64,000 bases of DNA, taken from NCBI GenBank assembly GCA_016699245.1, contig CP064968.1:640317-704316 (forward strand). The letters run 5' to 3'. Positions 11,560 to 48,864 of the stretch are shown one piece after another; within the stretch, counting starts at the first letter, position 1, and each line of letters starts with the position of its first letter. The DNA is from Candidatus Kaiserbacteria bacterium. GTDB lineage: Bacteria; Patescibacteriota; Minisyncoccia; Phycocordibacterales; UBA918. The notes below the pieces were generated by a model. That model made no database searches. It was not told the origin of the DNA and worked only from the letters and a program-made list of their open reading frames with translations. Position numbers and translations under genes: made by a program.

Positions 11560-11564
11560 AATAC

Positions 11565-15426: not shown

Positions 15427-15488
15427 TTGACTTATTATAATGCCTGTAGACTAACTACAACATCTCTCACCTGTGGACAGGGTATTTA

Positions 15489-16583: not shown

Positions 16584-16635
16584 AGGTGCTTTATATAGTT
16601 ACATACATTCTAGCACTTGATGCTAAGATATTCAC

Positions 16636-25611: not shown

Positions 25612-27786
25612 ATGCGCGCCACCGACACTCTCAAAACACATTTTCGGATTGATGTTGAACATCACAAAGCGCTTACGAAACTGGGTATCGTAACTGTCGA
25701 AAATCTTCTCTATCACCTTCCCCAACGCTATGAGGACATCAGCACTATTCAGTCCGTGGGTGGACTCGAGAAGGGGCAAGATGCTGTGGTGTACGGCAAG
25801 GTAGGAGGACTCAAGACGCGCAAAGCATGGAAGAGTCGTGTCCCTATTGCGGAAGGCTGGATAGAAGACGGCTCTGCGCGTATCAAGGTGATGTGGTTTA
25901 ATCAGCCATACATTGCAAAGATGCTTGTGGATGGGATGTATGTAAAAATGGCGGGCAAAGTGACAGGGAGCGAGGGAAAACTCTACCTCGCCAATCCTGA
26001 AATAGAAAAACTAGAATCCCTCCCCATTGACCGACATGACTCTATTTTCAACAACACCGAAAATCTCGATGAAACTATTTATCCTGTCTATCGCGAGACG
26101 AAGGGCGTGACCTCCAAGTGGTTTTATCACACGGTACTCAAATGCTTTGAGCAAGGAATTCTTGATACCCTAGAAGACCCTATCCCCGAAGCGATACTCG
26201 GTAAATACAACCTTCCCTCACTCCGCACCGCCCTCCAGTGGATGCATACACCCAAAAAAGCCGAGCACGCACAGAGTGCGCGAAAACGCTTTGCCTTTGA
26301 AGAGGTCTTTTACATCCAAACCGCAAAAGCACTTTCCCGTATGGAGATTCGTCATGCCGAGGGCTATGCATTCAAGACCGATGCAACGCATATCAAAGCG
26401 TTCACCGAGCGATTCCCTTTTGCACTCACGCCCGCGCAAAAAAAGGCCATCACCGATATTTTCAAAGATTGCACGGGCGAGTACCCTATGTCGCGACTGC
26501 TTGAGGGTGATGTAGGTAGTGGCAAGACGGCAGTGGCTGCGACTGTGGCATACGCTACCGCAACGTCTCGCCCAAAAGATGCAAACGGCAATGCCCAAGA
26601 CTTTGGCAATTTGCAGACAGCATATATGGCCCCAACCGAAATTCTCGCAAAGCAACACTTCGAGTCCTTTATCGAATATTTTCACCACCTCCCTATTCAA
26701 ATCGGTCTTATCACCGGAAGTGGCTGCATGAAGTTCCCCTCAAAGACAGACCCAAAAAAGCCAACGAGTATCTCAAAGGCACAGTTGCTGAAGTGGGTTA
26801 AAAACGGCGAAATTCCAATTCTTATCGGTACCCATGCACTCATGTATAAATCAGTGGAGTTTAAACATCTTGCACTTGTCGTCATTGACGAACAGCATCG
26901 CTTTGGCACCTCGCAACGCAAAGCACTTGCGAAAAAAGATGTACGTATGCCACACCTCCTCTCTATGACTGCCACCCCCATCCCCCGCACGCTCGCACTC
27001 ACCATCTATGGCGACCTCGACATCACGCTCCTCGACCAAATGCCGAGTGGGCGGAAAGCCGTCATCACGAAGATGATTACTAAAGACAAATCAAAATCCA
27101 TGTATGAGCACGTGGCTGCCGAACTCGCCACAGGAAGGCAGGCATACGTCATTTGCCCCCGCATCGACGAACCTGATCCTGACAAAGAAACCGCAATCAA
27201 TGCAAAGTCAGTTACCGAGGAAGCGAAGCGACTGAAAAAAGATGTCTTTCCCACATATCGTATTGCTGTCCTCCACAGCAAGATGAAACCCGCAGAGAAA
27301 GAAAAAATTATGAAGGAATTTTCGGAACACAAAACCGATATCCTCGTGGCAACATCCGTGGTGGAAGTGGGTGTCAATGTCCCAAATGCAACCAACATCA
27401 TTATCGAGGGCGCCGAGCGCTTTGGCCTTGCCCAACTGCACCAACTTCGAGGGCGCGTCATTCGTGGTACCTACCAGCCGTACTGTTTTCTCGTGAGCGA
27501 AAGCAAGAGCGACAAAACCCGTGAGCGCCTCACGGCGCTCACGACCGCCAAAAATGGTTTCGACCTTGCTGAGTACGACCTTGCTTTCCGCGGAAGCGGG
27601 CAACTCTATGGCGCAAAGCAGTCGGGCCTCACCGACCTCGGTATGGAAGCAATTAAAAATATCAAGATGGTCGAGGCCGCGCGCACCGAAGCACAAAACC
27701 TTGTTGCAAAAGACCCCACACTTGATTCAGTCCCCCTCATTCGCACGCGTGTAGCACACATCAAAGAGACACTTCACATGGAATAA
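25612..27786 (+). CDS. recG: ATP-dependent DNA helicase RecG
   Basis: 724 aa. Wedge/OB N-domain, Walker A DVGSGKT and DEQH box. Confidence 0.9.
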   Translation: MRATDTLKTHFRIDVEHHKALTKLGIVTVENLLYHLPQRYEDISTIQSVGGLEKGQDAVVYGKVGGLKTRKAWKSRVPIAEGWIEDGSARIKVMWFNQPYIAKMLVDGMYVKMAGKVTGSEGKLYLANPEIEKLESLPIDRHDSIFNNTENLDETIYPVYRETKGVTSKWFYHTVLKCFEQGILDTLEDPIPEAILGKYNLPSLRTALQWMHTPKKAEHAQSARKRFAFEEVFYIQTAKALSRMEIRHAEGYAFKTDATHIKAFTERFPFALTPAQKKAITDIFKDCTGEYPMSRLLEGDVGSGKTAVAATVAYATATSRPKDANGNAQDFGNLQTAYMAPTEILAKQHFESFIEYFHHLPIQIGLITGSGCMKFPSKTDPKKPTSISKAQLLKWVKNGEIPILIGTHALMYKSVEFKHLALVVIDEQHRFGTSQRKALAKKDVRMPHLLSMTATPIPRTLALTIYGDLDITLLDQMPSGRKAVITKMITKDKSKSMYEHVAAELATGRQAYVICPRIDEPDPDKETAINAKSVTEEAKRLKKDVFPTYRIAVLHSKMKPAEKEKIMKEFSEHKTDILVATSVVEVGVNVPNATNIIIEGAERFGLAQLHQLRGRVIRGTYQPYCFLVSESKSDKTRERLTALTTAKNGFDLAEYDLAFRGSGQLYGAKQSGLTDLGMEAIKNIKMVEAARTEAQNLVAKDPTLDSVPLIRTRVAHIKETLHME

Positions 27787-27862
27787 CTGTTCTCGAAGCA
27801 TTTTTCACTATGAAGTGAGACTTATTTCGAAAACAAGGACACAATCTGTGCAGGAGTATCTA

Positions 27863-28486
27863 TTACTCGACACATACGGGCACGCGATTCAGAATACGCT
27901 CAACAAGAAAGTGACGTACTTTACTCTGTTCTTCTGCATTATTCAGAATAGTCATATCGAGCACATAGCCGAGTGCAGGAGCGTTCTCCACTGAGGGATA
28001 TGATTTCTCACCACCAATTTGGACTGCGCCAAGCATTTCATAAAACTTTCGATGTTTCGGATTTACCGTAAAAGTAAGATGTGTGTAATCTTTACTCCGT
28101 GCATGAGCCACAACAAGCGAGAGAAGGCTGGTACTCACATCGAGTTGCGTACCCATCTTTTCTTCCTTAAGAAGTTCAGTATCAATCGCAAATTGACAAA
28201 CCTCAGCAAGGCGAGTCTTTGTGTTACGGAGTAATGTGAGTTCCTCTCTATAGATGAGGTCCATGGGAAGATATCTTTCACTATCACCGACGAGCGAGAT
28301 GGTGCCCACGGGTGTCTCCCCTACACACGCGAGAAAGGTTACCGACGTGGAACTTCTGAGATACGCACTCACACCACTCTCTCCTTCTTCACTTTTAACA
28401 TATCCCTCACGAGCGTACACTCGTGAAATGAGCGCGACTGCGCTCTCAATTTCAAAATCACTTTTAGCGAGATGATACGTGACCAT
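27863..28486 (-). CDS. Acyl-ACP-dependent N-acyltransferase, LuxI/FeeM/OlsB-like (GNAT-related fold)
   Basis: 207 aa. EVCQFAID matches the LuxI/FeeM E-x-SRFAVD active-site segment. Immediately adjacent to the ACP and PPTase genes. Confidence 0.5.
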   Translation of the reverse strand: MVTYHLAKSDFEIESAVALISRVYAREGYVKSEEGESGVSAYLRSSTSVTFLACVGETPVGTISLVGDSERYLPMDLIYREELTLLRNTKTRLAEVCQFAIDTELLKEEKMGTQLDVSTSLLSLVVAHARSKDYTHLTFTVNPKHRKFYEMLGAVQIGGEKSYPSVENAPALGYVLDMTILNNAEEQSKVRHFLVERILNRVPVCVE

Positions 28487-28489
28487 GCG

Positions 28490-28738
28490 TTACAGTGCGT
28501 ACTTTGCACGCCCCACATACTGCGCGATATCACCCACAGTATTGAGTGTGAGCACATCTTCGTATGATGTCTGCACGGCATACTTTCGTTCAAATGCGAG
28601 AAGAAGTTCAAAGAGTTGAATAGAATCCTCTGACAATTCAGCTATTAAATGTGTCTCATCTATAGTATCAACATGGCATTCAAGTGTCTCTGAAATAAGA
28701 AACTTCACTTCCAGAATAATATCAGAATACGGTTTCAT
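28490..28738 (-). CDS. Acyl carrier protein (dedicated)
   Basis: 82 aa. Phosphopantetheine attachment motif LSEDSIQLFELL, acidic four-helix pattern. Confidence 0.75.
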   Translation of the reverse strand: MKPYSDIILEVKFLISETLECHVDTIDETHLIAELSEDSIQLFELLLAFERKYAVQTSYEDVLTLNTVGDIAQYVGRAKYAL

Positions 28739-29505
28739 AAAATGATAGTAGTAATGATATAACCTCCTTCTTTTTGTGTCCAGGCTATTTGTGCAGGTAT
28801 AATTCTGTCATGTATTATAAGGGTTATATTGTGTTCGTCCGATGGGTCAATATGTACCTCGATGTCCCGTGGATGCATCTGGAGTCCAATGCCAATTGCT
28901 TTCAAATATGCTTCTTTAAGGCACCAATAGAGTGTCGCGTAGAAAGAAAAGCTCTCCTTATTTTCTGAGCATCGCGCATACTCTTGATCAACGAGGAACC
29001 CTCGGACGGTCTCTTCCTTCCATAATCGCACAGGTTCCATATCGACACCGACACCACGCGCCTTTTCTGCATGGACAGCCAGTGCAATAGCACAACCATT
29101 ACTATGTGCTATAGAGAGGTGCGGTGGAATAACGTTCTGTGCATTTCTACCTAGCGTACATACGGGTTGTCTCCCGTCACTCCTAATATCGATATCTGCA
29201 AGATTGAGTGTTACATCAAATGTTTCTTTAACGCATCGAGCAACAGCAAACTTTGCTACAACACGTCCTATGAGGGAGTCACGATATTTCTCCACATTCT
29301 TACGTGAGAGATACGTGCACTCATTTTCAGTAAGAAACTTCTGGTATGCCTCATGGTCTCGTACGTCATACATTGCGAAACTAGCACTATGCAATGGAAG
29401 TACCGGCAAAGTCTCTACTAATGTATACATACCATATGTATACCATATTCTAAATGTATAGAAATGCTTGGTATTTTTTGCTATCATGAGACTATATGCG
29501 TTCAC
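28735..29505 (-). CDS. 4'-phosphopantetheinyl transferase (Sfp/EntD type)
   Basis: Motifs GVGVDME and WCLKEAYLKAIG. The start is probably internal (MYTLVETLP or later). Confidence 0.75.
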   Translation of the reverse strand: MNAYSLMIAKNTKHFYTFRIWYTYGMYTLVETLPVLPLHSASFAMYDVRDHEAYQKFLTENECTYLSRKNVEKYRDSLIGRVVAKFAVARCVKETFDVTLNLADIDIRSDGRQPVCTLGRNAQNVIPPHLSIAHSNGCAIALAVHAEKARGVGVDMEPVRLWKEETVRGFLVDQEYARCSENKESFSFYATLYWCLKEAYLKAIGIGLQMHPRDIEVHIDPSDEHNITLIIHDRIIPAQIAWTQKEGGYIITTIIL

Positions 29506-30170
29506 CTTTCAAGGACTTACAAGAATATTTTCTCAAAAAGTGGTTTTTTTTCATTCAAATTCTTACAATTCCTGCAAATATTATTTTTTCATGTCTACTT
29601 CAACTCGTCGTCGAGCGTCCACCTGCTTTTAAGACAACGCATGGTATGCTCATTATCGCAAACCATCAAAGTAAAATTGATCCTTTTCTCATTTCGTATC
29701 ACATTGGCATAAGAAACATACTTACTACCATTCCTATACGTTATCCCGTTGACCACAAATACATATCAAAACCGTTTATTGGGTTTTGTATACGTCTCCT
29801 CGGTGGATACGATATCGGGGGAAATCACATGGAGCGTCTCAAGAAACTTGTATTTACACGCAATCTCTTCCATCGTGGATATACTGTTGTTCTCTTCCCC
29901 GAAGGGAAAATTACTCGTGACAGTGATATGGTTGATGAATTCAAACGTGGTGCATCAGCACTCTTCAATGAGAACTACCCTGTAGTTTTTGTGAGACTCA
30001 CCGGCCTCAATACGAAGCATCGATTCCACTTTTGGAAAAAATCTTGTACCAAACTTTCATACAGCGTACCGCTCGGAAGTGATGTTTCTCGAGAGAAAAA
30101 AATTGAAACAATGATAGAATTTTTTTATATTACGGAAAATAACCATAAAGAAAATATATGTCTTCAGTAA
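29496..30170 (+). CDS. PlsC/OlsA-like lysolipid O-acyltransferase
   Basis: 224 aa. HX4D motif NHQSKID and the FPEG motif. Confidence 0.75.
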   Translation: MRSPFKDLQEYFLKKWFFFIQILTIPANIIFSCLLQLVVERPPAFKTTHGMLIIANHQSKIDPFLISYHIGIRNILTTIPIRYPVDHKYISKPFIGFCIRLLGGYDIGGNHMERLKKLVFTRNLFHRGYTVVLFPEGKITRDSDMVDEFKRGASALFNENYPVVFVRLTGLNTKHRFHFWKKSCTKLSYSVPLGSDVSREKKIETMIEFFYITENNHKENICLQ

Positions 30171-30889
30171 TAATGAGTATCACGGGTACTATATTCATTG
30201 GTCTTATACTCGCCATAAGTATCCGAGCACTGTTTTATGGTTTTCGTGCTGTAGCACTTGGAAAGCGTGCAGTGCCATCATCGCAATCACCAGTGACGCC
30301 CCATAAGCGCGTACTTATTCTCGGAGACAGTATTGCAGTCGGTGTGGGTGCGAGTGCGCCAGAAACGTCTCTCGTAGGACGACTCATTCAATCATACCCA
30401 CACCTTCACATAGACAACCGCGCAAAAAATGCCCTTGGGTTTAATGAGGTCGAACAAGTACTTGCAAACATAACGGATGAGACCTACGACATAGTCATTC
30501 TATCGGTTGGTGGTATGGATGTGCTCCGATGTACTCCATTCTCGTCAATAGCAAAACATGTCGCCCGTATACAAGAACATCTACACCGTTTGGGTGTACA
30601 CCAGACTATTCTCGTTTCAGTCAATAACGTTGGAAATGCTCCCATGTGGGGGTTTCCTCTTAATAGATTTTTTGATAGACGCAGTCGTAACCTTACCGAA
30701 CATCTTGCGACACTCTCAGTGAAGTACAATATTCTTCATGTACCCCTGTATCGAGAGAAATATACAGATCCTCTCATACAACAACCTAATCTTTTTGCAG
30801 AAGACGGCACTCATCCGAATGATCAGGGATATGCTATCTGGTATAATCACATTCAATCCATAATTCACCCGCACATGCACCATGATTGA
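30158..30889 (+). CDS. SGNH/GDSL hydrolase (lipase/esterase) paralog 1
   Basis: 243 aa. GDS block ILGDSIAVG and DxxH block DGTHPN, with an N-terminal TM. Confidence 0.8.
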   Translation: MSSVIMSITGTIFIGLILAISIRALFYGFRAVALGKRAVPSSQSPVTPHKRVLILGDSIAVGVGASAPETSLVGRLIQSYPHLHIDNRAKNALGFNEVEQVLANITDETYDIVILSVGGMDVLRCTPFSSIAKHVARIQEHLHRLGVHQTILVSVNNVGNAPMWGFPLNRFFDRRSRNLTEHLATLSVKYNILHVPLYREKYTDPLIQQPNLFAEDGTHPNDQGYAIWYNHIQSIIHPHMHHD

Positions 30890-31658
30890 ATCTTTCACAC
30901 ATACACTCACGTATCTTCCCGCAATAACACAAGAAAATTATTTTTTATACGTGATGAATATATTCATCATCCTTTCGGTCCTCCGGGTCCTTATCATGAT
31001 AGGAAGGCTCATTCTCAATAAACAACTTGGCTTTTCGAGTAAGCCATACAATTCAACCACTCCTCAAGAAAAAAAGATACTCATCCTGGGCGACAGTACC
31101 GCTGTCGGCACTGGAGCGAGCGCACCTGAAGACACCATCGCGGGTAGACTCGCTCATGACTTCCCTCATTCGCAGATTGTGAACCTCGCAGAAAATGGCG
31201 GGCTCATTTCCGACCTCACCCACCAAATTGCAAAAGTAAAAAATGAGCATTTCGATATGATCATCATCAGTGCTGGTGGAAATGATGTCTGGCATGGCAC
31301 GTGGACACGCACGGTTGAACGTCACCTCGAGAACGTACTCCTAGAAGCAACTCGTATAAGTGACCACAAAGTTATCTTTCTTGTATACAACACCATCGCC
31401 TTAGCTCCTATCTGGCCTTTACTCATTCAATTATTTTTACGTTGGAGAAGCAAAAAGGTATACGGTACAATTTATCAAACCACACATAAGGCTAAAGTGC
31501 CCACCATTGACCTCTTCACTACGACAACTGACAACCCGTTTCTAAAGAATTCTCGCGGGCTTTTCGCTCGAGATGGAATTCATCCAAACTCACGCGGATA
31601 TGCACTCTGGTACCTTCGCATGTGGAACGAAATGGTTAAAAACGGATTCCGTTACTAG
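30882..31658 (+). CDS. SGNH/GDSL hydrolase paralog 2
   Basis: 258 aa. ILGDSTAVG and DGIHPN, with an N-terminal TM. Confidence 0.8.
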   Translation: MIESFTHTLTYLPAITQENYFLYVMNIFIILSVLRVLIMIGRLILNKQLGFSSKPYNSTTPQEKKILILGDSTAVGTGASAPEDTIAGRLAHDFPHSQIVNLAENGGLISDLTHQIAKVKNEHFDMIIISAGGNDVWHGTWTRTVERHLENVLLEATRISDHKVIFLVYNTIALAPIWPLLIQLFLRWRSKKVYGTIYQTTHKAKVPTIDLFTTTTDNPFLKNSRGLFARDGIHPNSRGYALWYLRMWNEMVKNGFRY

Positions 31659-31660
31659 CG

Positions 31661-32611
31661 TTATCGTTGTTTTTTTTCAAGAAGAGGGAACAAAAGTATT
31701 TTGAGCCTTTGAATCGGACCTCGATTACCAAATCGAAGTTTGCCTCGTACGTATCTGTCGTGCATAAGATCAAATTGATGGTAGTAGGGGACCGCATGAA
31801 CCGTTCCCTTATTGAGCAGTATTTTAACAGCATTCACGGTCACTACCCCCGCACATAGATTAACAGCCCCAATAGATGATGGCCCTCGTTTCTCATCGAG
31901 ATTTGTATTTTTCATGTAGCTCCGCTGAAGCAACTTGGGTATAAGTCCAATGAAAAAACGCACCGTCATATCTTTTTCTGTCATGCCGTCATGTATTGCA
32001 AAATACTCGTCAAATGAAGGACTGTTTGGCATGAAAATAAAAAATGCAGTACCAAAACCAATAGGACCTGCTGATATAACAGGAATATTTAATGTATGTG
32101 CTTTCATAATACTCATTCTACGCGCATCGATAGCAAAGGCATCGAGTGAGTCAACGAGAAGGTCTGCTTGTGCAAGAAATGTGTCAATATTGTCTACTGT
32201 CACTCCCTCTTCAAAAACTTCAATGGTACACTCAGGGTTTATTTTATGTGCTTCTTCTCTCATAACTTCCACTTTGCTTTGTCCGAGGGTATCCATGCGC
32301 GCACCGTACTGGCGATTCATATTTTTCTCTTCAAAAATATCAAGGTCTGCAATTTTGAAATGCTCAAATCCTTGACGAACGAGTGATATAAGGTGCACTC
32401 CCCCAACACCACCCATTCCGGCGATTGCGATAGTTTTTTTGCGAAGTACTTCTTGCTCTTTTTGGGTCAATAGACCGATGTTACGGGAAAATGCTTCATA
32501 ATAATTAAATGAGGTATCATGCATATCCTTATATTGTACACGGGTGTCACATCTGTGCAATTGATGTGCCGGGCTTTCTCCCACCTCACTCTGAGTGGGT
32601 CTGTCGTACAA
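31661..32611 (-). CDS. ThiF/MoeB/MccB-family E1-like adenylyltransferase
   Basis: 316 aa. Nucleotide-binding motif IAGMGGVGG and the ThiF core. Confidence 0.75.
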   Translation of the reverse strand: MYDRPTQSEVGESPAHQLHRCDTRVQYKDMHDTSFNYYEAFSRNIGLLTQKEQEVLRKKTIAIAGMGGVGGVHLISLVRQGFEHFKIADLDIFEEKNMNRQYGARMDTLGQSKVEVMREEAHKINPECTIEVFEEGVTVDNIDTFLAQADLLVDSLDAFAIDARRMSIMKAHTLNIPVISAGPIGFGTAFFIFMPNSPSFDEYFAIHDGMTEKDMTVRFFIGLIPKLLQRSYMKNTNLDEKRGPSSIGAVNLCAGVVTVNAVKILLNKGTVHAVPYYHQFDLMHDRYVRGKLRFGNRGPIQRLKILLFPLLEKKQR

Positions 32612-32713
32612 TCATAGCGGTCTTATACAATTGAATATGATTGATAATTTAATGATATCCTCCATAATGGATGTAGATGTACTTATAACTGTTGTACGCC
32701 CCTATCAAAAGCA

Positions 32714-34081
32714 ATGGAGATTCATCAAATTCTCGAAAAGCAACGAGCATATTTTCAGTCCGGCATAACAAAGGATATTAGTTTTCGTGAACACTCTCTT
32801 CGTGAACTGAGGCGCTCACTCAGACTCCATGAGGATAAAATCATTGACGCTCTCTATCATGATTTAAAAAAATCTGAATTTGAAGTCGTTCAAGGCGAGC
32901 TTTTCCCCGTATTCTCTGAAATTGCATACACATTAAAACATATACGTACATGGTCAAAATCACGTAAAGCGAACCACCCTGCTTTTTTCCCTTTCAGCCG
33001 AGGGACTGTTGACGTAGTACCACACGGCACATCACTTATTTTTTCTCCATACAACCACCCCATTAGTACAAGTTTCACTCCGCTGGTGAGTGCTCTCGCA
33101 GGAGGTAATTGTGTCATTCTAAAACCATCTGAACTCGTCACACACTCCGCACATGTCATAGAGAGTATTATTAAAGAAGTGTTCTCAGATGAATATGTCG
33201 CTGTGGTACAAGGGCCTGCAGAAATCTCTCAAGGTTTACTCACGCTCGACGTCAATCATATTTTTTTTACGGGGAGTAGTGCAGTTGGTAAATCAATTAT
33301 GCGTACCGCAGCAGATAAGCTTATTCCGGTCACTCTCCAGCTTGGTGGCAAATGCCCAGGCATCATAGATAAAAATGTCCCCATAGAGACTACTGCACGT
33401 CGCATTGCATGGGGGAAATATTGGAATGCAGGTCAGTCATGCAACACCGTTGACCACCTGTACGTTCACGCATCAATAAAGAAACGTTTTATTCAAGCGC
33501 TCATAACATCTATTGAGGAATTCTATACAACAGATCCACAGCAAAGTCCTGATTACGGCAGAATTGTGAATGAACGTCATGTTGATAGGATTTCTCGGTA
33601 TCTGAGTGAAGGAACTGTCGTCTATGGCGGAGTGGTTGACCGTAGAGACCACTACATCGCCCCTACTATTATGGATACCATACATACGGACGCCACTGTG
33701 CTCCGTGAAGAAATTTTTGGACCTGTTCTTCCTATTTTTGAATTTGAAGATATTGCTGATGTAGTGAAATCTATCAATAGCAAACCAAAGGTCTTGGCAG
33801 TATACATATTTTCAAATTGTAAAGAGACAACTCGCTCTGTGATGCGAAATACCGATTCGGGAACCGCCTGTATCAATGACCTCATGATACAATCAACTTC
33901 CTCTGATATGCCGATAGGCGGTGTTGGAGAAAGTGGTTTTGGACGACTTCATGGTAAAAATTGTTTTGATGCATTTACCCACACACGAAGTGTTCTCAAA
34001 AATGTCGCATTCGACACCCCCCTTAGATTCCCACCATACAATACGAAAATGCTCCTACCCTTCTTGAAAAAATTGTTATAA
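32714..34081 (+). CDS. Class-3 aldehyde dehydrogenase family protein (catalytic Glu replaced by Gln)
   Basis: 455 aa. Aligns motif-by-motif with ALDH3: VTLQLGGKCP versus VTLELGGKSP, and catalytic Cys in NAGQSCNTVD. Confidence 0.8.
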   Translation: MEIHQILEKQRAYFQSGITKDISFREHSLRELRRSLRLHEDKIIDALYHDLKKSEFEVVQGELFPVFSEIAYTLKHIRTWSKSRKANHPAFFPFSRGTVDVVPHGTSLIFSPYNHPISTSFTPLVSALAGGNCVILKPSELVTHSAHVIESIIKEVFSDEYVAVVQGPAEISQGLLTLDVNHIFFTGSSAVGKSIMRTAADKLIPVTLQLGGKCPGIIDKNVPIETTARRIAWGKYWNAGQSCNTVDHLYVHASIKKRFIQALITSIEEFYTTDPQQSPDYGRIVNERHVDRISRYLSEGTVVYGGVVDRRDHYIAPTIMDTIHTDATVLREEIFGPVLPIFEFEDIADVVKSINSKPKVLAVYIFSNCKETTRSVMRNTDSGTACINDLMIQSTSSDMPIGGVGESGFGRLHGKNCFDAFTHTRSVLKNVAFDTPLRFPPYNTKMLLPFLKKLL

Positions 34082-34093
34082 AAATTCCTGAGT

Positions 34094-35251
34094 ATGACAC
34101 ATACCCTCAAAGAAAAAACTACATCTGCAACAATGCGCGAAAGTGCTCTTTTTGAATTTTATGCATCTCATGTATGGCCTATACATCGGTTATTTGCAAA
34201 AAAATATCTAACCCCGCGGTGTACAAAGTGTGCACTTTCTGCACGTGCAATCACTCTCAATGATGCCGGTGTCTGTTCTTTGTGTACGACGAATACTGAT
34301 GATACGTATGTCATAAAACCAGAAAGGCAAGCAGAACTTGAAGAGGAGCTTCATACTATCTTTTCGCGCTATGCAGGCGCCGGTACGGGCGAGTATGATG
34401 CACTTATCATGATAAGTGGTGGGAAGGATAGTACACTCCTCATACACAAACTCCGTACCGAGTACCCATCCCTCCGTGTTCTCACTATCACCATCGATAA
34501 CAGTTTCATGAGTGCCATTGCTCTTCGAAATGTTGATAAAATCGTTGAGGCTTTTAATACTCCTCACATTCGTTTACGCCCTAATCCAGATATATATAGA
34601 ACTGCATTCAAATATGCATTTACCCATCTTGGTACATTTGGGTGTGCGCAGACCGTTGATACTGTAGATGGTGAACTTTTCCTCGATTTTGGAAAACATA
34701 TTGCAGCGACATTTAAGATTCCGCTTCTTGTTACTGGTTTTTCATTTGAACAAGTTACACGATATCTTCATTGGAATTCATTTCATAATACGACATACGA
34801 CACGACCAAGCGAATGCAAGTTGGTATCTACACACCAGAAGAACTTCTCCCTCCCTCTCATGTTGCTACATGGTGGGATCCATCTCGATATGCATCTGAG
34901 CATATCCCACAAATCATATGTCCATTTTATGTCTGGAGAATGAACGAAGTAGTGGTGGAGAAAGAGGTCGCGGCACTCGGACTTCTGGACACAAAGGAGA
35001 CGAGTCCTCTTGTCACAAACAACCAACTCATTCCTCTTTGTGGTCTCGTTGACATTGCGCATCTTGGCTACTCAAGTTGGGAGCCAGAATTTTCACGTAT
35101 GGTTCGAGAGGGTAAAACTGATAAAAAGAAGTGGCAAAATATTTTTGAACTTATGGAGTACTCTGCAAAAACAGGAAAATTTATTTCTTCGTCTGTCGAT
35201 GTTGTGCTTGAGAAGTTGGGACTGACCCGTGCTGATGTTGGTATTCGATAA
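34094..35251 (+). CDS. PP-loop ATP pyrophosphatase with N-terminal Cys4 zinc ribbon (TtuA/Ncs6-like)
   Basis: 385 aa. CTKC...CSLC followed by the PP-loop SGGKDS. Confidence 0.6.
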   Translation: MTHTLKEKTTSATMRESALFEFYASHVWPIHRLFAKKYLTPRCTKCALSARAITLNDAGVCSLCTTNTDDTYVIKPERQAELEEELHTIFSRYAGAGTGEYDALIMISGGKDSTLLIHKLRTEYPSLRVLTITIDNSFMSAIALRNVDKIVEAFNTPHIRLRPNPDIYRTAFKYAFTHLGTFGCAQTVDTVDGELFLDFGKHIAATFKIPLLVTGFSFEQVTRYLHWNSFHNTTYDTTKRMQVGIYTPEELLPPSHVATWWDPSRYASEHIPQIICPFYVWRMNEVVVEKEVAALGLLDTKETSPLVTNNQLIPLCGLVDIAHLGYSSWEPEFSRMVREGKTDKKKWQNIFELMEYSAKTGKFISSSVDVVLEKLGLTRADVGIR

Positions 35252-35263
35252 TCATCTTTCTGT

Positions 35264-36418
35264 ATGCACACTATTTTTATTACAGGAGCAACAGGTAATC
35301 TTGGCTCCAGAACACTTGTTGAATTTCTTCTCAATACTGATGCAAGATGTGTAGTACTCGTATACGCCCCTAACCTGTCAGACGCTGAAGAACAAATACG
35401 AAAGGTGCTCTCTTTCTGGAATGTTGAGTGGGACGTGGTCCACGATAGACTTACGGTACTTTGTGGTGATACTACACAAAAAATGCTTGGCCTAGATTCA
35501 TCTATATTTGACTCACTTTCCCACACCGTGACACACATCATTCATTGTGCGGCATATTTTAAACTTGATATGAGCCTTGAAGACGCACGACGTTCGATTG
35601 TGGAAGCGACAGAAAATGTAGCCATGCTCGGTATTGAAGCAACCAAAAATCAAGTATTTAAACACTTCACATATATTAGTTCTCTCGATGCAGTAGGAAT
35701 GCAGGAAGGTACCATATATGAAACCTTTTTTGATATATCACAGCTACGTTTTTTAAACACATACCAACAAGCAAAGGCTGAGGCTGAGTCGTACCTTCAC
35801 TCACTTTTTCTCACCAAACAGTTCCCTATCACTGTCGTACGCCCAAGTATGCTTGTCGGAGATGCTCAAACAGGAAAAATAATCAATCCACAATCTCTCT
35901 ATCACATTATTCAAGATATGTTTCTTAAGCCGCCCTCGATACTATTACCAGGAAGAAACTTTAGAATAGATCCGATGCCAATAAATTTTCTCGCACACGG
36001 CATGCGACACATGTATGATGCACCTGAAACGTGTGGTCGCGTATACCACTTCGTAGCGGGGAGCAATCATAATATAACCATACCAAAATTCATTGATTTG
36101 CTTCAAACAATTTATTATGAGCAGCTTGGTATACGAATTAAAAAACCTATATTTATAGCTCCACTACTTCCATACATATTCATGACAATACTCTATACCT
36201 TTTTGTGGGGAGAACCAAAAAGAAAAGTTAAGGAACAACGAGATATGATTCGCTATTTCTTCCTTAATGCCAAACCAGACAATGCACAAATGAAAGCTTT
36301 TATGGAATCGAGAGGAGTAGAAATTCCAAATATTACAGAGTACCTTCCAACATTATGTGCATATATAATACAAACACAAAAACTTCCTGTATCGCTCTAC
36401 AAAACCCCAAAAACGTAA
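35264..36418 (+). CDS. Stand-alone thioester reductase / fatty-acyl reductase (extended SDR)
   Basis: 384 aa. ITGATGNLGS matches ITGATGFLG, and catalytic YQQAK (YxxxK) is present. Confidence 0.7.
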   Translation: MHTIFITGATGNLGSRTLVEFLLNTDARCVVLVYAPNLSDAEEQIRKVLSFWNVEWDVVHDRLTVLCGDTTQKMLGLDSSIFDSLSHTVTHIIHCAAYFKLDMSLEDARRSIVEATENVAMLGIEATKNQVFKHFTYISSLDAVGMQEGTIYETFFDISQLRFLNTYQQAKAEAESYLHSLFLTKQFPITVVRPSMLVGDAQTGKIINPQSLYHIIQDMFLKPPSILLPGRNFRIDPMPINFLAHGMRHMYDAPETCGRVYHFVAGSNHNITIPKFIDLLQTIYYEQLGIRIKKPIFIAPLLPYIFMTILYTFLWGEPKRKVKEQRDMIRYFFLNAKPDNAQMKAFMESRGVEIPNITEYLPTLCAYIIQTQKLPVSLYKTPKT

Positions 36419-36562
36419 AGAATAGCAGTGTATTCATACACACTATTGACATAGTGTGTTACACGATATACCCTAGCAACAGTTTCCACGAAAGGGGGTG
36501 ATCCGCCGAAAGGCTATCTATCAGCGCAGAAACGCTGATTATTATTCCACTTTTCTCAACCC

Positions 36563-36593
36563 GGGCCAGCATGCGAGTGCTGGCCCATTTTTA
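36563..36593 (+). terminator. Rho-independent terminator (gggccagca-tgcgag-tgctggccc + ATTTTTA)
   Basis: 9-bp GC-rich stem plus a T-run. Ends the reductase operon and/or a candidate small RNA. Confidence 0.55.
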
Positions 36594-36643
36594 TACATTT
36601 GTCTTCATATCTTGAGTGCGCTATAGTCTTTGATGTCCACTTC

Positions 36644-36716
36644 CCGTGCGTAGCTCAGTTGGTAGAGCGATTGTCTTATACACAGTTGGTCCCAGGTTCG
36701 AGTCCTGGCGCACGGA
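36644..36716 (+). tRNA. tRNA-Ile with anticodon TAT (UAU)
   Basis: 73-nt manual cloverleaf: acceptor CCGTGCG/CGCACGG, D-arm GCTC-AGTTGGTA-GAGC, anticodon stem ATTGT/ACAGT, loop CTTATAC, T-loop TTCGAGT, discriminator A. Confidence 0.7.
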
Positions 36717-36721
36717 CAGAT

Positions 36722-37384
36722 TTATCTTTTATCAAAGTTGTTTTTGATGTATTTCAAACCCTGAAGAACATATTCTGAAATAGTGCTGTCATCAACAATG
36801 ATATTACAAGTTCCATGACCAAATCCTCGATAGGTAATTTTTTTGCTATCCGTTTTTTTTATGTGTGGTTTTTGAAAGTGAGTCTTTTTAAGACCTGTTA
36901 CTGTTTCCCAAAACCGAGTCTCTATCCCGATATCCATATCTGAATATAAATGCAAACGGACTTTAATTTTTTCTTGTGAAACTGAAATACCTCTAAGCCA
37001 CTTCAGGTAAAAAATAATCATTTGAGGATCGGTGTTCGAGAGTGAAATACTATATTCTTTTGTCTTACCCCCTTCACCCCAGTACAGAAATAGGCCTGCA
37101 AGAAAAATTTCGCGTTTACTCATCTTGTTAATCTCCTTCGCGATACGTGCATAAACTTTTGTGAGTCTTTCTTCTCTTTTTCTCTGCATAGTATTTCTGA
37201 ACTTTTCAATGCGTGCAGGAGATTTCGCACGAAGTTCATTTATTCGCTCTCTAGAAAGTGGAAATTCTCGAAGCCAATAACTCAATGTACTTTTACTAAC
37301 CGGTACCTTTGCCCTAATTGCGCTATAACTCAGGCCTTGCATCCTGAGTGTAATTGCCTTCTCTCTTTCTTTATAAAGTGCCAT
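36722..37384 (-). CDS. HTH-domain protein with LAGLIDADG-like segment (possible homing-endonuclease-like or transposase HTH protein)
   Basis: 220 aa. N-terminal HTH (LSYSAIRAKVPVSKSTLSYWL) and LAGLFLYWGEGG resembling LAGLIDADG. Abuts the tRNA 3' end. Confidence 0.3.
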   Translation of the reverse strand: MALYKEREKAITLRMQGLSYSAIRAKVPVSKSTLSYWLREFPLSRERINELRAKSPARIEKFRNTMQRKREERLTKVYARIAKEINKMSKREIFLAGLFLYWGEGGKTKEYSISLSNTDPQMIIFYLKWLRGISVSQEKIKVRLHLYSDMDIGIETRFWETVTGLKKTHFQKPHIKKTDSKKITYRGFGHGTCNIIVDDSTISEYVLQGLKYIKNNFDKR

Positions 37385-37584
37385 ACTATTAAATAGTTCT
37401 ACTTATAACTGTTTTTCATTGGTTCTATTATATCACATACTAACAACGAACAAATTCTGAAAACTGTTTGCTCATATAACAAGTCATCAAATAAACTCAA
37501 CGACTCTCTCCGTAAGAGATTTTTGAAATACACAATCAGACAATCTGTCCTTATTCCCTTTCGTCTCTCAATGAACACTGAGCG

Positions 37585-39111
37585 GTGCGGTATACTGAGT
37601 GTATGCAAAAAATTCTCTCGTTCTTTCGTGTACATTGGATTCGTATACTTTTGCTCCTGCTCCTCATAACTATGGTGGGGATATATATGTATAGCAAACA
37701 CACTGACATACCGAATTGGGTTACCACGACAGTCGAAACTGGTACTGTCAGCAAAATCATTTCGGTCTCGGGCACCATGAATGCCACCAAAAGTGCAGAC
37801 CTCTCCTTCCCCTCTGGGGGTATTGTTGAAACAATCACCGCGAAAGAAGGGGATGTGGTACTGCAAGATGCAGAACTCGTCACACTCGAGCGCGATGCAC
37901 TTCTTGCTGAATATCAAGATGCATATGGCGCACTCCTCATTGCACAAGCAGACCAAAGAGAACTCGCTTCTGGTATCCGCCCCGAAGAACGAAAGATAAA
38001 TGAAACTAAGGTCGCTATCGCAAAAGAGGAACTCGCACGTGTAACCAAATCTTCAGACGATAAGGTAGCAAATGCATATCGCACACTCCTTTCTTCAGAT
38101 CTCGTCGCTCGACCTATTGACAAAGACAACGATGACACCGCACCCACCATTACGGGTACGTACACGTGTGCCGAAGGTACCTATACCCTTTCTCTATTTC
38201 GCTCGGGAGCGAAATCAGGTTATTCATATCGCCTCAGTGGCCTTGAGAGTGGCACATACACTGCGTATACCGATTCTCCAGGAAATCTTGGCACGTGTGG
38301 CTTTTCAATTCAATTTGCAGATGGAGTGTCGTATCGCAGTGCTGATTGGACCATCACTATTCCGAACACAGAGAGTGCTCCCTACGTCACTAATAGCAAT
38401 GCCTATATTCTTGCACAAACAGAGCGTAACAACGCCGTAGAGAGTGCGGCCCAAAATCTAAAACTTGCAGAACAAAATGCCACTCTCGACACCGCAACAC
38501 CACGTGAAGAAGCTATCGCCCGTGCCCGCGCACGTGTCCTTCAAACAGAGGCGCGTGTCCAAAAAATCCAAGCGGAACTGAAAGACCGCATTCTTTCAGC
38601 ACCATTTGACGGCACCATTACCAACATTGAACCTGTTGTTGGAGAGACTGTTGGTGTAGAGCCGGTCGTCACTATGATTTCACGCGATGTCTTTGAACTC
38701 ACGGCACTCGTCCCTGAAATCGATGTTACGAAGATTACTCCCGGGCAAAAAGCGCACGTCGTCTTTGATGCACGGGTAGGCGAGACGCTCATAGCAACCA
38801 TCACCGTCATCTCCCCTCTTGCCCGCGAAATTGATGGTGTTTCTTATTTTGAAACAAAACTCATGCTTGATACGTCTTCTTCTTGGCTCCAAAGCGGGCT
38901 CAATGCTGACATTGATATCATTATTGAATCGCGTGAAAATGTCACCCGTATTCCTTCACGTTTTCTCGTTACTGAAGGTAAAAATCCCTCGGTGCTCATC
39001 CAAAGTGGTACTGTAACACAATCAATCCCTGTCACGCTTATCTTTGAAGGCAATGATGGGTATGTAGAAGTGAGTGGCATCAACCCTGGCGACACCATCA
39101 TCGCCCCTTAA
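37585..39111 (+). CDS. HlyD/MacA-family periplasmic adaptor subunit (module 1)
   Basis: 508 aa. N-terminal TM, long coiled coil and beta-barrel/lipoyl-like domains. Confidence 0.7.
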   Translation: MRYTECMQKILSFFRVHWIRILLLLLLITMVGIYMYSKHTDIPNWVTTTVETGTVSKIISVSGTMNATKSADLSFPSGGIVETITAKEGDVVLQDAELVTLERDALLAEYQDAYGALLIAQADQRELASGIRPEERKINETKVAIAKEELARVTKSSDDKVANAYRTLLSSDLVARPIDKDNDDTAPTITGTYTCAEGTYTLSLFRSGAKSGYSYRLSGLESGTYTAYTDSPGNLGTCGFSIQFADGVSYRSADWTITIPNTESAPYVTNSNAYILAQTERNNAVESAAQNLKLAEQNATLDTATPREEAIARARARVLQTEARVQKIQAELKDRILSAPFDGTITNIEPVVGETVGVEPVVTMISRDVFELTALVPEIDVTKITPGQKAHVVFDARVGETLIATITVISPLAREIDGVSYFETKLMLDTSSSWLQSGLNADIDIIIESRENVTRIPSRFLVTEGKNPSVLIQSGTVTQSIPVTLIFEGNDGYVEVSGINPGDTIIAP

Positions 39112-39117
39112 TTCACT

Positions 39118-40365
39118 ATGCGCAGTCTTCGTATCGGATTACTTCTCGGCTTCAGGCAAATTCAACGTGCAAGCACGTGGACAACGATGCTCATTATCTT
39201 TGTGATGATGTTTACTTTTCTGAATCTCATTGCGCTTTCGGGAATCTTGGTAGGAATTATTGTGGGTGCCGAACGCGCCGTACGTGAGAGCTCTGTGGGT
39301 GACATTGTGATCACCCCGCTCGTCGGTGAAGCAGCAATCCTCAATACTCCGAATATCATTCGCGAACTCGCTACATATCCAGAATTGGAGTCATACTCAG
39401 CGAGACTCAAAGGAAGTGCACTTCTTGAAGCTAATTTTAAAGAACGTCGTGACTTGAGTAACGAACGCGACACCGCGCAAATTATCCTTACCGGTATAGA
39501 TCCCATTCATGAAGATGCAATGACCCACTTAAGTGACTATGTGGTTGAAGGTGAGTATCTCAATCCCGATGAAGAAGGCTACATACTCGTCGGAGTGTAT
39601 TACATCAAGGAGTACGCTCAAAAATTTGGTGATGTATTTGATAGTGTGTCTAATGTGCATCCTGGGGACACGGTGCGTATTTCTCTGAATGGCGTTTCAA
39701 AAGAAATGAAAGTGAAAGGCCTCATCAATTCAAAAGTAGATGAAATCAGTCTCAACACATACATTCCCGAGCGTGAGTTTAGACGTCTTTTTGGCAAACT
39801 CGACCAAAACGCGGACCAGATTGTGATACGTCTTGATTCACCATCCCAAAATGTGACAGTCAAAAATGCTTTGGTTGCTGGTGGTATTGAACAGTATGCA
39901 AAAATTCAAACGTTTGAAGAAAGTTTGCCGAAGTTCCTCATCGACATGAAAGATACCTTTAATATTCTCGGTGCATTCACAGGCTCGATAGGCATTGTCG
40001 TCGCTTCAATTACCATTTTTATTATTATCTTTATCAACGCGCTTTCGCGACGCAGATACATCGGTATCTTGAAAGGTATTGGTGTTTCAGAACGTGCTAT
40101 TGAGATTGCGTACGTGCTCCAAGCTGCGTTCTATGCGCTTGTAGGCTCCCTGATAGGTGCACTCGTCACGTACGGTTTCCTAGTCCCATACTTTGACAAC
40201 AATCCAATTCAATTCCCTTTCAGCGATGGTGTCCTTGTTGCCGACCCACTGAGTACTTTTTATAAATTCCTGACACTCTTTATTATTACCCTTATCGCTG
40301 GCTTCCTACCTGCATGGCTCATTACCCGCCAAAACACCCTTAATTCAATCCTTGGACGCAAATAG
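39118..40365 (+). CDS. FtsX/MacB-like ABC transporter permease (module 1)
   Basis: 415 aa. N-terminal TM, large periplasmic domain and three C-terminal TM segments. Confidence 0.75.
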   Translation: MRSLRIGLLLGFRQIQRASTWTTMLIIFVMMFTFLNLIALSGILVGIIVGAERAVRESSVGDIVITPLVGEAAILNTPNIIRELATYPELESYSARLKGSALLEANFKERRDLSNERDTAQIILTGIDPIHEDAMTHLSDYVVEGEYLNPDEEGYILVGVYYIKEYAQKFGDVFDSVSNVHPGDTVRISLNGVSKEMKVKGLINSKVDEISLNTYIPEREFRRLFGKLDQNADQIVIRLDSPSQNVTVKNALVAGGIEQYAKIQTFEESLPKFLIDMKDTFNILGAFTGSIGIVVASITIFIIIFINALSRRRYIGILKGIGVSERAIEIAYVLQAAFYALVGSLIGALVTYGFLVPYFDNNPIQFPFSDGVLVADPLSTFYKFLTLFIITLIAGFLPAWLITRQNTLNSILGRK

Positions 40366-41071
40366 TATTATGGCACTCATTACGGCAAAAAATATTCATC
40401 GCTCGTTTGGTACTGGGGACTTGATGACCCACGTGCTCAAAGGCATTACACTCGACGTTCACGAAGGTGACTTCATTGCTATCATGGGAAAATCAGGCGC
40501 AGGTAAATCGACACTCATGTACCAACTCTCTGTCCTCGACCGCCCCACTGAAGGCACGCTCACCATTGATGGTGTCACGGTGAGTGAACTCACCGAACAC
40601 GAGCAAACACTCTTTCGCCTCAATACCCTTGGCTACGTCTTTCAGGACTATGCCCTTGTACCTGATTTAAGCGCAGGAGAGAATATAGTCGTCCCCCTCC
40701 TTATGAAAGACCAGTCGTGGGAAGAAGCAAAAATGCATGCGGAGGAAGCACTTATTGCGGTTGGGCTTTCCGATAAATACAACAACCTTCCTGCACAACT
40801 CTCTGGTGGTGAACAACAGCGTGTAGCGATTGCGCGCACCATTGCCGGTAATCCAAAGATTATTTTTGCCGATGAACCAACGGCCAATCTTGATAGTATC
40901 TCAGGAAATGCCATCATCGACCTCCTTGGCGACCTCAATTGCAAGGGTCAAACGATTGTTATGGTGACGCACGAAGAAGAGTACGTAAAATACTGCAATC
41001 GACTCGTGTACATGGAAGATGGTGTTGTGGTGAAAGAGGAACAAAATAAAAATAGATGCACTATTGCGTAA
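40352..41071 (+). CDS. ABC transporter ATP-binding protein, MacB/LolD-type (module 1)
   Basis: 239 aa. Walker A GKSGAGKST and signature LSGGEQQRVAIAR. Confidence 0.85.
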   Translation: MDANSIMALITAKNIHRSFGTGDLMTHVLKGITLDVHEGDFIAIMGKSGAGKSTLMYQLSVLDRPTEGTLTIDGVTVSELTEHEQTLFRLNTLGYVFQDYALVPDLSAGENIVVPLLMKDQSWEEAKMHAEEALIAVGLSDKYNNLPAQLSGGEQQRVAIARTIAGNPKIIFADEPTANLDSISGNAIIDLLGDLNCKGQTIVMVTHEEEYVKYCNRLVYMEDGVVVKEEQNKNRCTIA

Positions 41072-41240
41072 CATCAACACTCCATATTATAAGTATACAA
41101 AAAAGATGTAATACCATATTTTATACTCCTTTTAAACTATAGATATCCCTTCATCTCGTCAGTTACGTAACCTCGGCATTCTCTGTAGACTCAAAATTAC
41201 TACTCACTCTTTTCATATAATTACATGTATTTTTTACCTG

Positions 41241-42767: not shown

Positions 42768-42768
42768 T

Positions 42769-44016: not shown

Positions 44017-44097
44017 AATTTGTTTTGTGAAAACTGGTAATGAATATACAATAAGCAGAGAAAAATCGTAATATATACTATTAACAATCACGACTGA

Positions 44098-44844: not shown

Positions 44845-45002
44845 GAACATATAATCTTTAATCGCGTATTCCCAATGAGTGTTAATAATAAGCAATGTAT
44901 CTACCTCGCGCCACCACTGCCACGAAATCATCTGCATATGAATGAAATAAAAAACACCACGGGCGCAGGTACTGCGTCCGTGGTGTTTTTTATTTACTTC
45001 AA

Positions 45003-48457: not shown

Positions 48458-48864
48458 GGGGGATGACAGGCTTTGACGGTTTGCCCCGCACGATCTGTGC
48501 AGTGTCGAAGTTGGATGTAACTTCGTTAAAATGCATCTATCCGTACGTGCTAAGAAAAGCGTACCAAGTCCTTATGCTAACGCATTCGGATTCGCACCAG
48601 CATTCGCGTAACCCAAGAAATTAGGTTACCCCGCTCGTGTGGCATCACCGTGTCGAATGCCTAATACGATACGCGTGGTGATATAAACATCAGGCTCTAG
48701 TCTCTTCCCTCGCCTCCGGTAGAGACCAAATTCTTCGAGGCTCGACTGCTGATGCTTTGGTTTTCCTTTTACATCATCAGTTCAAATCAAAAGGTAAACT
48801 ACACACTGTAGACCCAGACGTTCGGTCACTCTCGGACGGCGGTTCAAATCCGCCCATCTCCACA
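48458..48864 (+). ncRNA. ssrA: tmRNA (ssrA)
   Basis: 5' GGGGATGACAGGCTTTGACGG pairs with 3' GGTTCAAATCCGCCCATCTCCA, with a G3:U wobble. The tag ORF ends ...ANAFGFAPAFA-stop. Confidence 0.8.

Follow-up and report, generated by a model that had tools for sequence, protein, structure and literature searches.

A candidate acyl-oxazolone or N-acyl amino acid lipid pathway with its own acyl carrier protein in a Candidatus Kaiserbacteria genome

What would a bacterium with a genome of 1.05 Mb, from a lineage that reportedly lacks fatty-acid synthesis and recycles lipids (PMC12455944, citing Probst 2020), do with a gene cluster that includes a dedicated acyl carrier protein (ACP)? The question is raised by a 64-kb stretch of DNA from Candidatus Kaiserbacteria, a member of the candidate phyla radiation (CPR, or Patescibacteria). 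In this stretch, hereafter the window, positions 27863–36418 hold ten tightly packed open reading frames (ORFs) in four transcription units. We propose, at a probability of about 0.6 and on the strength of sequence comparison, that the region is a CPR version of the acyl-oxazolone or N-acyl amino acid lipid pathway represented by OxzAB, TyzACB and TrzAS. Its variant features are a dedicated ACP with a 4'-phosphopantetheinyl transferase (PPTase), added PlsC-like and SGNH hydrolase genes, and a trio of accessory genes in place of a nitroreductase-type flavin oxidase (FDO). The ten genes are as follows.

27863–28486, minus strand: FeeM-type N-acyl amino acid synthase, 207 aa (PF21926), candidate functional counterpart of OxzA and TyzA
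28490–28738, minus strand: dedicated ACP, 82 aa (PP-binding, E = 5e-8, and ACP matches in NCBIfam)
28735–29505, minus strand: Sfp-type PPTase (ACPS, PF01648, E = 1e-16; HetI/EntD-type matches)
29496–30170, plus strand: PlsC-like acyltransferase, 224 aa, with an N-terminal hydrophobic segment (PF01553, E = 1e-14)
30158–30889, plus strand: membrane-anchored SGNH hydrolase 1 (SGNH1), 243 aa (Lipase_GDSL_2, E = 2e-16; blocks GDS, GGMD and DGTHP)
30882–31658, plus strand: membrane-anchored SGNH hydrolase 2 (SGNH2), 258 aa (Lipase_GDSL_2, E = 3e-19; blocks GDS, GGND and DGIHP)
31661–32524, minus strand: ThiF-like protein, candidate ATP-dependent cyclase of the OxzB/TyzB kind, 287 aa from the NCBI-annotated start (the ORF extends to 32611)
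32714–34081, plus strand: class-3 (fatty/aromatic) aldehyde dehydrogenase (ALDH; Aldedh, E = 2e-81)
34094–35251, plus strand: NASAT/WbuX-like PP-loop ATP pyrophosphatase, 385 aa, with an N-terminal four-cysteine ribbon (TIGR03573, E = 2e-25, below cutoff)
35264–36418, plus strand: stand-alone thioester reductase of the short-chain dehydrogenase/reductase (SDR) type, 384 aa (NAD_binding_4, PF07993, E = 4e-36, 124.9 bits)

Families were called with Pfam and NCBIfam profiles and by sequence matches in the Protein Data Bank (PDB), with Foldseek used for a model of the PP-loop protein. Neighbourhoods were fetched around homologues of the synthase, the ThiF-like protein and the PP-loop protein and scored by tblastn with the window proteins; we label these loci L and individual proteins P. 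A metagenome scan returned at least 600 matches, with only a few further CPR loci among the matches listed, and megablast of the whole region against plasmids gave none. A literature search for oxazolone or N-acyl amino acid synthases together with Patescibacteria or CPR found no relevant paper. The Pfam and NCBIfam calls place the ten ORFs in the families that a first-pass annotation of the bare sequence had given them, and the EVCQFAID motif of the synthase, the HX4D motif of the acyltransferase and the YQQAK motif of the reductase are all present.

The window ThiF protein scores 362 bits on the NCBIfam model PRK08223 (cutoff 266) and 311 bits on PRK14851, a 679-aa model of ThiF plus nitroreductase, whereas ThiF, MoeB and TcdA models reach 60–94 bits, four- to sixfold below PRK08223. 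The Rv1355c-family model is matched weakly, at 62 bits, and PDB entry 9EGC is a match for the ThiF fold. OxzA and OxzB of Pseudoalteromonas rubra and other Proteobacteria produce oxazolones from N-acyl amino acids and ATP, OxzB being a ThiF–nitroreductase di-domain protein, and the published OxzB-like set is drawn from alpha-, beta- and gamma-proteobacteria (10.1101/2020.06.11.147165). One fetched locus, from Kordiimonas sp. (L023), encodes a 683-aa di-domain protein of this build that is 48% identical to the window ThiF protein and whose ThiF half scores 411 bits on PRK08223. By organism name, source dataset and length it matches an entry of the published OxzB-like list (Table S1), and the likeness of the window protein to OxzB rests on this Kordiimonas protein as an OxzB-like representative. 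GMGGVGG, NxNRQ and the invariant D125 and D128 (LVDSLDAF) are kept in 17 aligned family members; the 17 do not include TrzS, in which the aspartate D217 is essential (PMC12856293).

The company that ThiF relatives keep points the same way. A genome scan yielded 417 of them, in Proteobacteria, Planctomycetes, Desulfobacterota, CPR and DPANN, and neighbour clustering showed that the majority are accompanied by a FeeM or PF13444 acyltransferase and by a nitroreductase-like domain, about 360 aa long, that is either fused or adjacent. Across the 169 ThiF loci examined, an N-acyl synthase lies nearby in 123, an FDO in 118 and an ACP in nine, all of them CPR. The NCBIfam fusion models PRK14851 (ThiF–FDO) and PRK14852 (a FeeM-like domain followed by ThiF) serve as Rosetta stones for these associations. 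Because of its PRK08223 score, the OxzA/OxzB architecture, its identity to the Kordiimonas protein and the pairing across 169 loci, the window ThiF protein is best read as an oxazolone-forming cyclase, and not as an ACP loader. Activation of acyl chains onto the ACP by ThiF, which had been suggested in the first-pass annotation, is very unlikely, and we discarded it as a candidate, since 160 of the 169 loci contain no ACP.

The second gene of such a pathway would be the synthase, and here the 207-aa protein falls within the FeeM/LuxI-like family, as first annotated: it matches PF21926 with E = 2e-34 (119 bits, gathering cutoff 27) and the FeeM crystal structure 2G0B with E = 1e-21, and it keeps the LAEV.QFA.D segment. 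No match to PF13444, the OlsB/GlsB-type family, was found in it at E ≤ 0.01. It also weakly matches the N-terminal part of PRK14852. Its homologues in nine CPR loci are 35–45% identical to it, and the distance between synthase and ThiF genes, 3.2 kb in the window, shrinks to direct adjacency in L005 and L086.

FeeM is described as ACP-dependent (PMC10404671), and in the window the ACP gene stops 4 bp from the synthase start, a pairing that is also found in nine CPR loci. The expected ACP serine is present: within LSEDSIQ it aligns with Ser36 of Escherichia coli AcpP, and the DS pair is invariant in six CPR homologues. The adjoining PPTase has the motif GVDME. Its start is uncertain, as the GTG at 29505 overlaps the divergent PlsC-like gene and, from an internal ATG near 29430, the protein would be about 231 aa long; homologues range from 185 to 251 aa.

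Seven of the ten genes (synthase, ACP, PPTase, PlsC-like acyltransferase, two SGNH hydrolases and ThiF) form a core that recurs in nine further CPR loci (L001–L006, L088, L089 and L095), so that with the window there are ten cassette loci; L087, which holds part of the cassette, brings the CPR loci with a cassette or part of one to eleven. By tblastn the PlsC-like gene is detected in nine of the ten cassette loci and undetected only in L004. Gene order and strand within the core vary among the CPR loci, while the full ten-gene order of the window is reproduced in L089 and the same ten genes appear rearranged in L088. Because the seven genes recur in nine CPR loci in shuffled orders, and all ten in L088 and L089, the grouping of the cluster genes is not chance. 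The view that they make a coherent, co-conserved lipid unit around a dedicated ACP and PPTase thus holds for the seven.

The remaining three genes behave differently. A trio operon of class-3 ALDH, PP-loop enzyme and reductase diverges from ThiF in the window and accompanies ThiF in L087, L088, L089 and L095 as well (the reductase gene of L095 is cut off by the end of the contig). Five other CPR cassettes, L002–L006, instead carry an FDO as a separate gene, and these FDOs match the C-terminal half of PRK14851, the Rv1355c (TrzS) family and Acg-family FMN oxidoreductases. A tblastn search with four FDO queries found none within the 64 kb of the window. Trio and FDO never occur together in the CPR loci, on a basis of ten loci, and L001 has neither. 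With the trio in five of the 11 CPR loci, and alone in the non-CPR contig L090, its genes are accessories, and the first-pass annotation, which had counted them in the unit, is to be corrected on this point. In L089 an FAD_binding_4 oxidase gene (10018–10869) directly follows the reductase and is cut by the contig end; the window has nothing equivalent, and the enzyme may serve as an alternative oxidising partner.

The PP-loop protein has no Pfam match and reaches 89.9 bits on TIGR03573, below the cutoff of 203.2. Its PP-loop motif is SGGKDS, and C43, C46, C61 and C64 of the ribbon and S108-G-G-x-D112 are invariant in the family, with no conserved cysteine outside the zinc ribbon, Fe–S cysteines included. 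An AlphaFold2 model (pLDDT 93) aligned over its full length with Legionella NASAT 8WEX (Foldseek E = 1.7e-10, TM 0.59, 364 columns), as against TM 0.33–0.36 for TtuA structures and about 0.3 for LarE and asparagine-synthetase-type enzymes. By sequence, the PDB match reaches only E = 0.0015. The family is small: a word index gave 41 matches and an exhaustive profile search about 244 representatives at E ≤ 1e-30, and by these comparisons it is a distinct sister family of NASAT (TIGR03573). The protein had first been taken for a TtuA-like enzyme, a reading that the conserved residues and the fold ranking rule out in favour of a NASAT/WbuX-like one. A further role offered for it, that of a general ACP loader, fails on its presence in only five of the 11 CPR loci.

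The reductase contains the motifs GATGNLG and YQQAK and matches TIGR01746 with E = 2e-25, at 90 bits where the cutoff is 213. Its nearest solved relatives are terminal reductases of polyketide synthases and nonribosomal peptide synthetases (8v1x, and MxaA, 4u7w; E about 3e-16), and it also matches epimerase-type SDR models in Pfam. Five proteins (P0176, P0180, P0181, P0194 and P0201) are fusions with the reductase at the N terminus and the PP-loop enzyme at the C terminus. P0205 runs in the order AMP-binding(C), carrier, reductase, PP-loop, and P0179 joins a PP-loop enzyme to an AMP-binding domain. Compared with P0176, the PP-loop protein of the window shows 41% identity along its entire length to the PP-loop half, and the window reductase 26% identity to the reductase half. 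PP-loop and SDR genes also occur as pairs within oxz-like operons, in L066 (Desulfobacterales; ThiF–FDO, PP-loop, SDR) and in the metagenomic contig L133, while other PP-loop homologues adjoin ketosynthase or palmitoyl thioesterase genes. Because of the fusion proteins, the pairs and the acyl-gene neighbours, we take reductase and PP-loop enzyme to work jointly on acyl substrates that are carrier-bound or activated in some other way. The two are recurrent accessories of the acyl-oxazolone-type pathway.

The third member of the trio, the ALDH, has its top PDB matches in 6k0z (2e-111) and the fatty aldehyde dehydrogenase 4qgk (1e-95), and its homologues adjoin PP-loop and reductase genes in L087–L090 and L095. 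At residues 208–213 it reads LQLGGK, as it does in L089, in place of the usual ELGGK; the catalytic cysteine and EEIFGP are kept. In another CPR-like genome (L091, 6013–9155, and L092) a FabF/FabB-type ketosynthase and a MacB pump are encoded close to a PP-loop homologue of 44% identity; for a lineage reported to be without fatty-acid synthesis, a ketosynthase is unexpected.

The PlsC-like protein keeps intact HX4D (HQSKID) and FPEG motifs, and in NCBIfam it best matches the acyltransferase portion of acyl-[ACP]--phospholipid O-acyltransferase (Aas). The two SGNH hydrolases are paralogues (34% identity), each with an N-terminal hydrophobic anchor and the blocks GDS, GGxD and DxxHP, and SGNH1 weakly matches TesA/lysophospholipase L1 in NCBIfam. 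PDB sequence searches with the PlsC-like and SGNH proteins returned no informative relatives. Lysine and arginine are more numerous after the N-terminal anchor than before it in 11 of 12 SGNH homologues, with one tie. By the positive-inside rule this suggests that the catalytic domains face the cytoplasm, which speaks against a role as secreted lipases; harvesting of exogenous acyl chains was the part first assigned to these enzymes.

From these assignments a route can be proposed, in which the first, third and fourth steps rest on homology. The PPTase would convert the dedicated ACP to its holo form. An acyl chain would then be placed on the ACP, presumably from pre-existing host-derived lipid given the reported lack of fatty-acid synthesis in CPR bacteria, and the SGNH hydrolases and the PlsC-like acyltransferase are candidates for this transfer. 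The FeeM-type synthase would take the acyl group from the ACP and attach it to the alpha-amino nitrogen of an amino acid, yielding an N-acyl amino acid; the amino acid is aromatic in all characterised relatives. ThiF would adenylate the free carboxylate and cyclise the product to a 2-alkyl-5(4H)-oxazolone, as its conserved pairing and the fusion models also indicate. In the five CPR relatives with an FDO beside ThiF, that enzyme would desaturate the ring, as in the characterised pathways. In the window, the trio in the place of the FDO probably reduces and amidates the activated intermediate to a different end product; action of the trio on an activated N-acyl amino acid, by reduction and nitrogen substitution, is proposed because fusions link reductase and PP-loop enzyme. 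MacB-type pumps, and possibly a DedA-like protein, may by their context export or place the lipid.

Several points weigh against this assignment. The FDO, a defining partner in the known pathways, is missing from the 64-kb window and could lie elsewhere in the 1.05-Mb genome. SGNH and PlsC-like enzymes are no more than candidate loaders of the ACP, and the characterised OxzA, TyzA and TrzA take acyl-CoA, not acyl-ACP (10.1101/2020.06.11.147165, PMC10404671, PMC12856293). The synthase reaches no curated NCBIfam synthase model. ThiF homologues stand without the cassette in the CPR genomes L084 and L085, and the trio stands alone in L090, so that its link to the pathway may be contextual and not obligatory.

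Other explanations fit parts of this record. The one closest to the first-pass annotation is a pathway to membrane aminolipids after the pattern of OlsB/OlsA or GlsB/GlsA, in which the synthase would N-acylate the amino acid, the PlsC-like enzyme would add an O-linked chain to give a two-tailed phospholipid substitute, and ThiF or the PP-loop enzyme would load fatty acids onto the ACP. Membrane lipid has to reach CPR bacteria from some alternative source (PMC12455944), and part of the idea stands: a PlsC-like gene with HX4D and FPEG accompanies synthase and ACP in nine of ten cassette loci, no acyl-ACP synthetase is visible among the window ORFs of at least 180 aa, as had been noted, and PP-loop homologues adjoin ketosynthase and palmitoyl thioesterase genes or are fused to an AMP-binding domain. 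The synthase, however, is FeeM-type without a PF13444 match, which makes this analogy weaker than that with FeeM and the oxazolone pathways, and the 3-hydroxyacyl donor would normally come from type II fatty-acid synthesis. ThiF, a member of the OxzB ThiF equivalog, has FDO and synthase as partners in loci without an ACP (160 of 169), and the PP-loop gene, in five of 11 CPR loci, cannot be a general loader. ThiF/FDO cyclisation would be left without a role, and we regard the aminolipid explanation as unlikely.

The ten genes might also be unrelated neighbouring units: a phospholipid-remodelling set (PlsC-like enzyme, SGNH lysophospholipase or thioesterase, ACP and PPTase), a synthase–ThiF pair making a signal or antibiotic, and the trio as an operon that modifies envelope or glycan. 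Such a division would suit the Aas match of the PlsC-like protein and the TesA/lysophospholipase L1 match of SGNH1, the trio alone in L090, the retention of ThiF, SGNH and pumps without synthase or ACP in L085, and the resemblance of the PP-loop enzyme to a sugar amidotransferase and of the reductase to epimerase-type SDRs. It sits poorly with seven core genes that stay together through several rearrangements in ten loci of different CPR lineages, with an ACP near ThiF only in the company of synthase, PPTase, SGNH and PlsC-like genes, and with the mutual exclusion of trio and FDO beside ThiF. PP-loop and SDR genes moreover recur in oxz-like operons of unrelated bacteria (L066, L133), and the block contains no glycosyltransferase or sugar-nucleotide genes; we hold this division to be improbable, on a level below mere unlikelihood. 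As for ThiF as a conventional E1-type enzyme that activates a sulfur-carrier or ubiquitin-like protein (for thiamine, molybdopterin or thiolation with the PP-loop enzyme), with the lipid genes as bystanders, it is suggested by the ThiF Pfam domain, by the weaker ThiF, MoeB and TcdA matches, and by the fact that zinc-ribbon PP-loop ATPases include TtuA-type thiolases that use ThiS-like carriers, which appear among the lower-ranked Foldseek matches. It is largely refuted. The 17 aligned family members have no conserved cysteine, CxxC or rhodanese, the cluster's intergenic parts hold no small ORF ending in GG (the sole one in 26000–45000 lies antisense inside a permease gene), and on these grounds we ruled the E1 reading out as a candidate. 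The low ThiF, MoeB and TcdA scores, the missing Fe–S cysteines of the PP-loop enzyme and its TM of about 0.33 to TtuA speak against it too.

The acyl-oxazolone reading also bears on loci outside the CPR. Sets of synthase, ThiF and FDO genes occur in DPANN archaea too. As an example, a Pacearchaeota (DPANN) locus, L086, carries in 9002–16896 a FeeM gene (298 aa), ThiF and FDO in a row, with a second FeeM/autoinducer-synthase-like gene beside one for an AMP-binding acyl-activating enzyme. Its ThiF protein is 58% identical to the CPR protein, and exchange of the pathway between episymbiotic bacteria and archaea is suggested. In Proteobacteria and Desulfobacterota (L008–L083, for example L021, L009, L066 and L023), oxzAB-like genes lie amid genes for PEP-CTERM proteins, PrsT-like TPR proteins, AMP-binding ligases and methyltransferases. 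The Kordiimonas OxzA-like protein matches TIGR03694/PF13444, "PEP-CTERM/exosortase system-associated acyltransferase", and oxazolone synthesis may be tied to exosortase systems.

If the acyl-oxazolone reading is right, the pathway extends to CPR bacteria and DPANN archaea, both episymbiotic lineages in which such lipids could mediate interaction with the host. A cassette with its own ACP and PPTase would offer a clonable entry to acyl handling in CPR bacteria, including the ACP-loading enzyme and the acyl source. It also flags a widespread, uncharacterised and often fused pair, thioester reductase and NASAT-like PP-loop ATPase, that may carry out novel reactions with activated acyl or N-acyl amino acid substrates. 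More speculatively, and as a proposal we would not ourselves bet on, the oxidase-less trio cassettes (window, L087, L088, L089 and L095) might make an undescribed class of lipids derived from N-acyl amino acids. ThiF would activate the carboxylate, the reductase would form an N-acyl amino aldehyde from the oxazolone or an ACP thioester, and the PP-loop enzyme would turn the amide into an amidine. Closure to an imidazole- or oxazole-type ring could then proceed without an O2-dependent oxidase, with ACP, SGNH and PlsC-like proteins providing ATP-independent loading of host acyl chains.

The genes that follow the cluster bear on transport and on where the biosynthetic block ends.

36644–36717, plus strand: tRNA-Ile(UAU), found by ARAGORN and Rfam, at the right edge of the biosynthetic block
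36722–37384, minus strand: 220-aa protein with weak helix-turn-helix (HTH) matches, after the tRNA gene
37585–44844, plus strand: two tandem MacB-type export systems, each with HlyD-like adaptor, FtsX/MacB permease and ABC ATPase (Pfam)
47164–47850, minus strand: DedA/VTT-like membrane protein, 228 aa (weak VTT_dom match, E = 2.5e-4, below cutoff)

The two pump sets are paralogous (39–61% identical), and MacB-type pumps adjoin the cassette or ThiF in seven loci (the window, L002, L003, L085, L087, L088 and L089), in L002 with one set on either side of the cassette. They are candidate exporters of the product. A DedA/VTT-like homologue of about 200 aa was found by tblastn beside ThiF in L001, L005, L006, L087, L088, L089 and L095. 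The 220-aa HTH-like protein is 54% identical to the product of a gene at 15544–16194 in L085 (Paceibacterota), in the equivalent position between pump genes and RecG, and may be a local regulator or the remnant of a mobile element. tRNA-Ile(UAU) is uncommon in bacteria, most of which read AUA with a lysidine-modified CAU tRNA. Elsewhere in the window, 4610–16583 holds a type IV pilus-like set (three pilins with N-methyl motifs, a prepilin peptidase, a PilC-like T2SSF protein, two T2SSE ATPases and PilM) with an IS200-like Y1 transposase gene inside it at 7230–7934. A tmRNA gene (48459–48865, plus strand) and a phosphoketolase and acetate kinase pair (58991–62502, minus strand) are housekeeping.

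Set beside known systems, the cluster resembles each in part. NASAT (WbuX/TIGR03573, 8WEX) shares with the PP-loop enzyme the SGGxDS motif, the N-terminal cysteine ribbon and the full-length fold, at only 16% identity. NASAT genes stand with HisH/HisF-like ammonia-supplying partners and sugar-nucleotide genes, neither of which is among the neighbours in the window, L087, L089 and L090. Members of the window family are fused to thioester reductases, carrier or AMP-binding domains, fusions that are not described for NASAT in the available part of its report. The amide-to-amidine chemistry of NASAT, which acts on an N-acetyl amide (PMC10607449), could in principle apply to an N-acyl amino acid.

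Ornithine- and glycine-lipid synthesis (OlsB–OlsA, GlsB–GlsA) joins an acyl-ACP-dependent N-acyltransferase to a PlsC-family acyltransferase and has no ThiF cyclase. The window likewise encodes an N-acyltransferase together with a PlsC-family HX4D acyltransferase; its N-acyltransferase is not of PF13444, and its cassette always comes with a ThiF cyclase.

Two of the three gene-level parts that define the acyl-oxazolone pathway, synthase and ThiF cyclase, are in the window, and the FDO is not. With OxzAB it shares an N-acyl amino acid synthase gene beside a ThiF-type cyclase gene, and the PRK08223 equivalog is common to both. OxzB is a di-domain protein, whereas the window ThiF stands alone without an FDO in the window; OxzA takes acyl-CoA, and the Kordiimonas one belongs to TIGR03694/PF13444, whereas the window has a FeeM-type synthase that comes with a dedicated ACP and PPTase. 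The setting differs as well, in a CPR genome and with PlsC-like, SGNH and MacB-type pump genes. TyzA, TyzB and TyzC of Mycobacterium tuberculosis are separate genes (PMC10404671), as are synthase, ThiF and, in L002–L006, flavin oxidase in the CPR cassettes; in TrzS, ThiF cyclisation without oxidase activity gives a saturated cyclised intermediate (PMC12856293). The available parts of these reports describe no ACP, PPTase, SGNH or PlsC-like genes for the Tyz and Trz clusters. It is the FeeM/FeeL system, the N-acyl tyrosine synthase of the environmental-DNA fee cluster (2G0B), that the window resembles in this respect: the two synthases belong to a common Pfam family, and in the window a dedicated ACP gene lies immediately upstream, in line with the ACP dependence described for FeeM.

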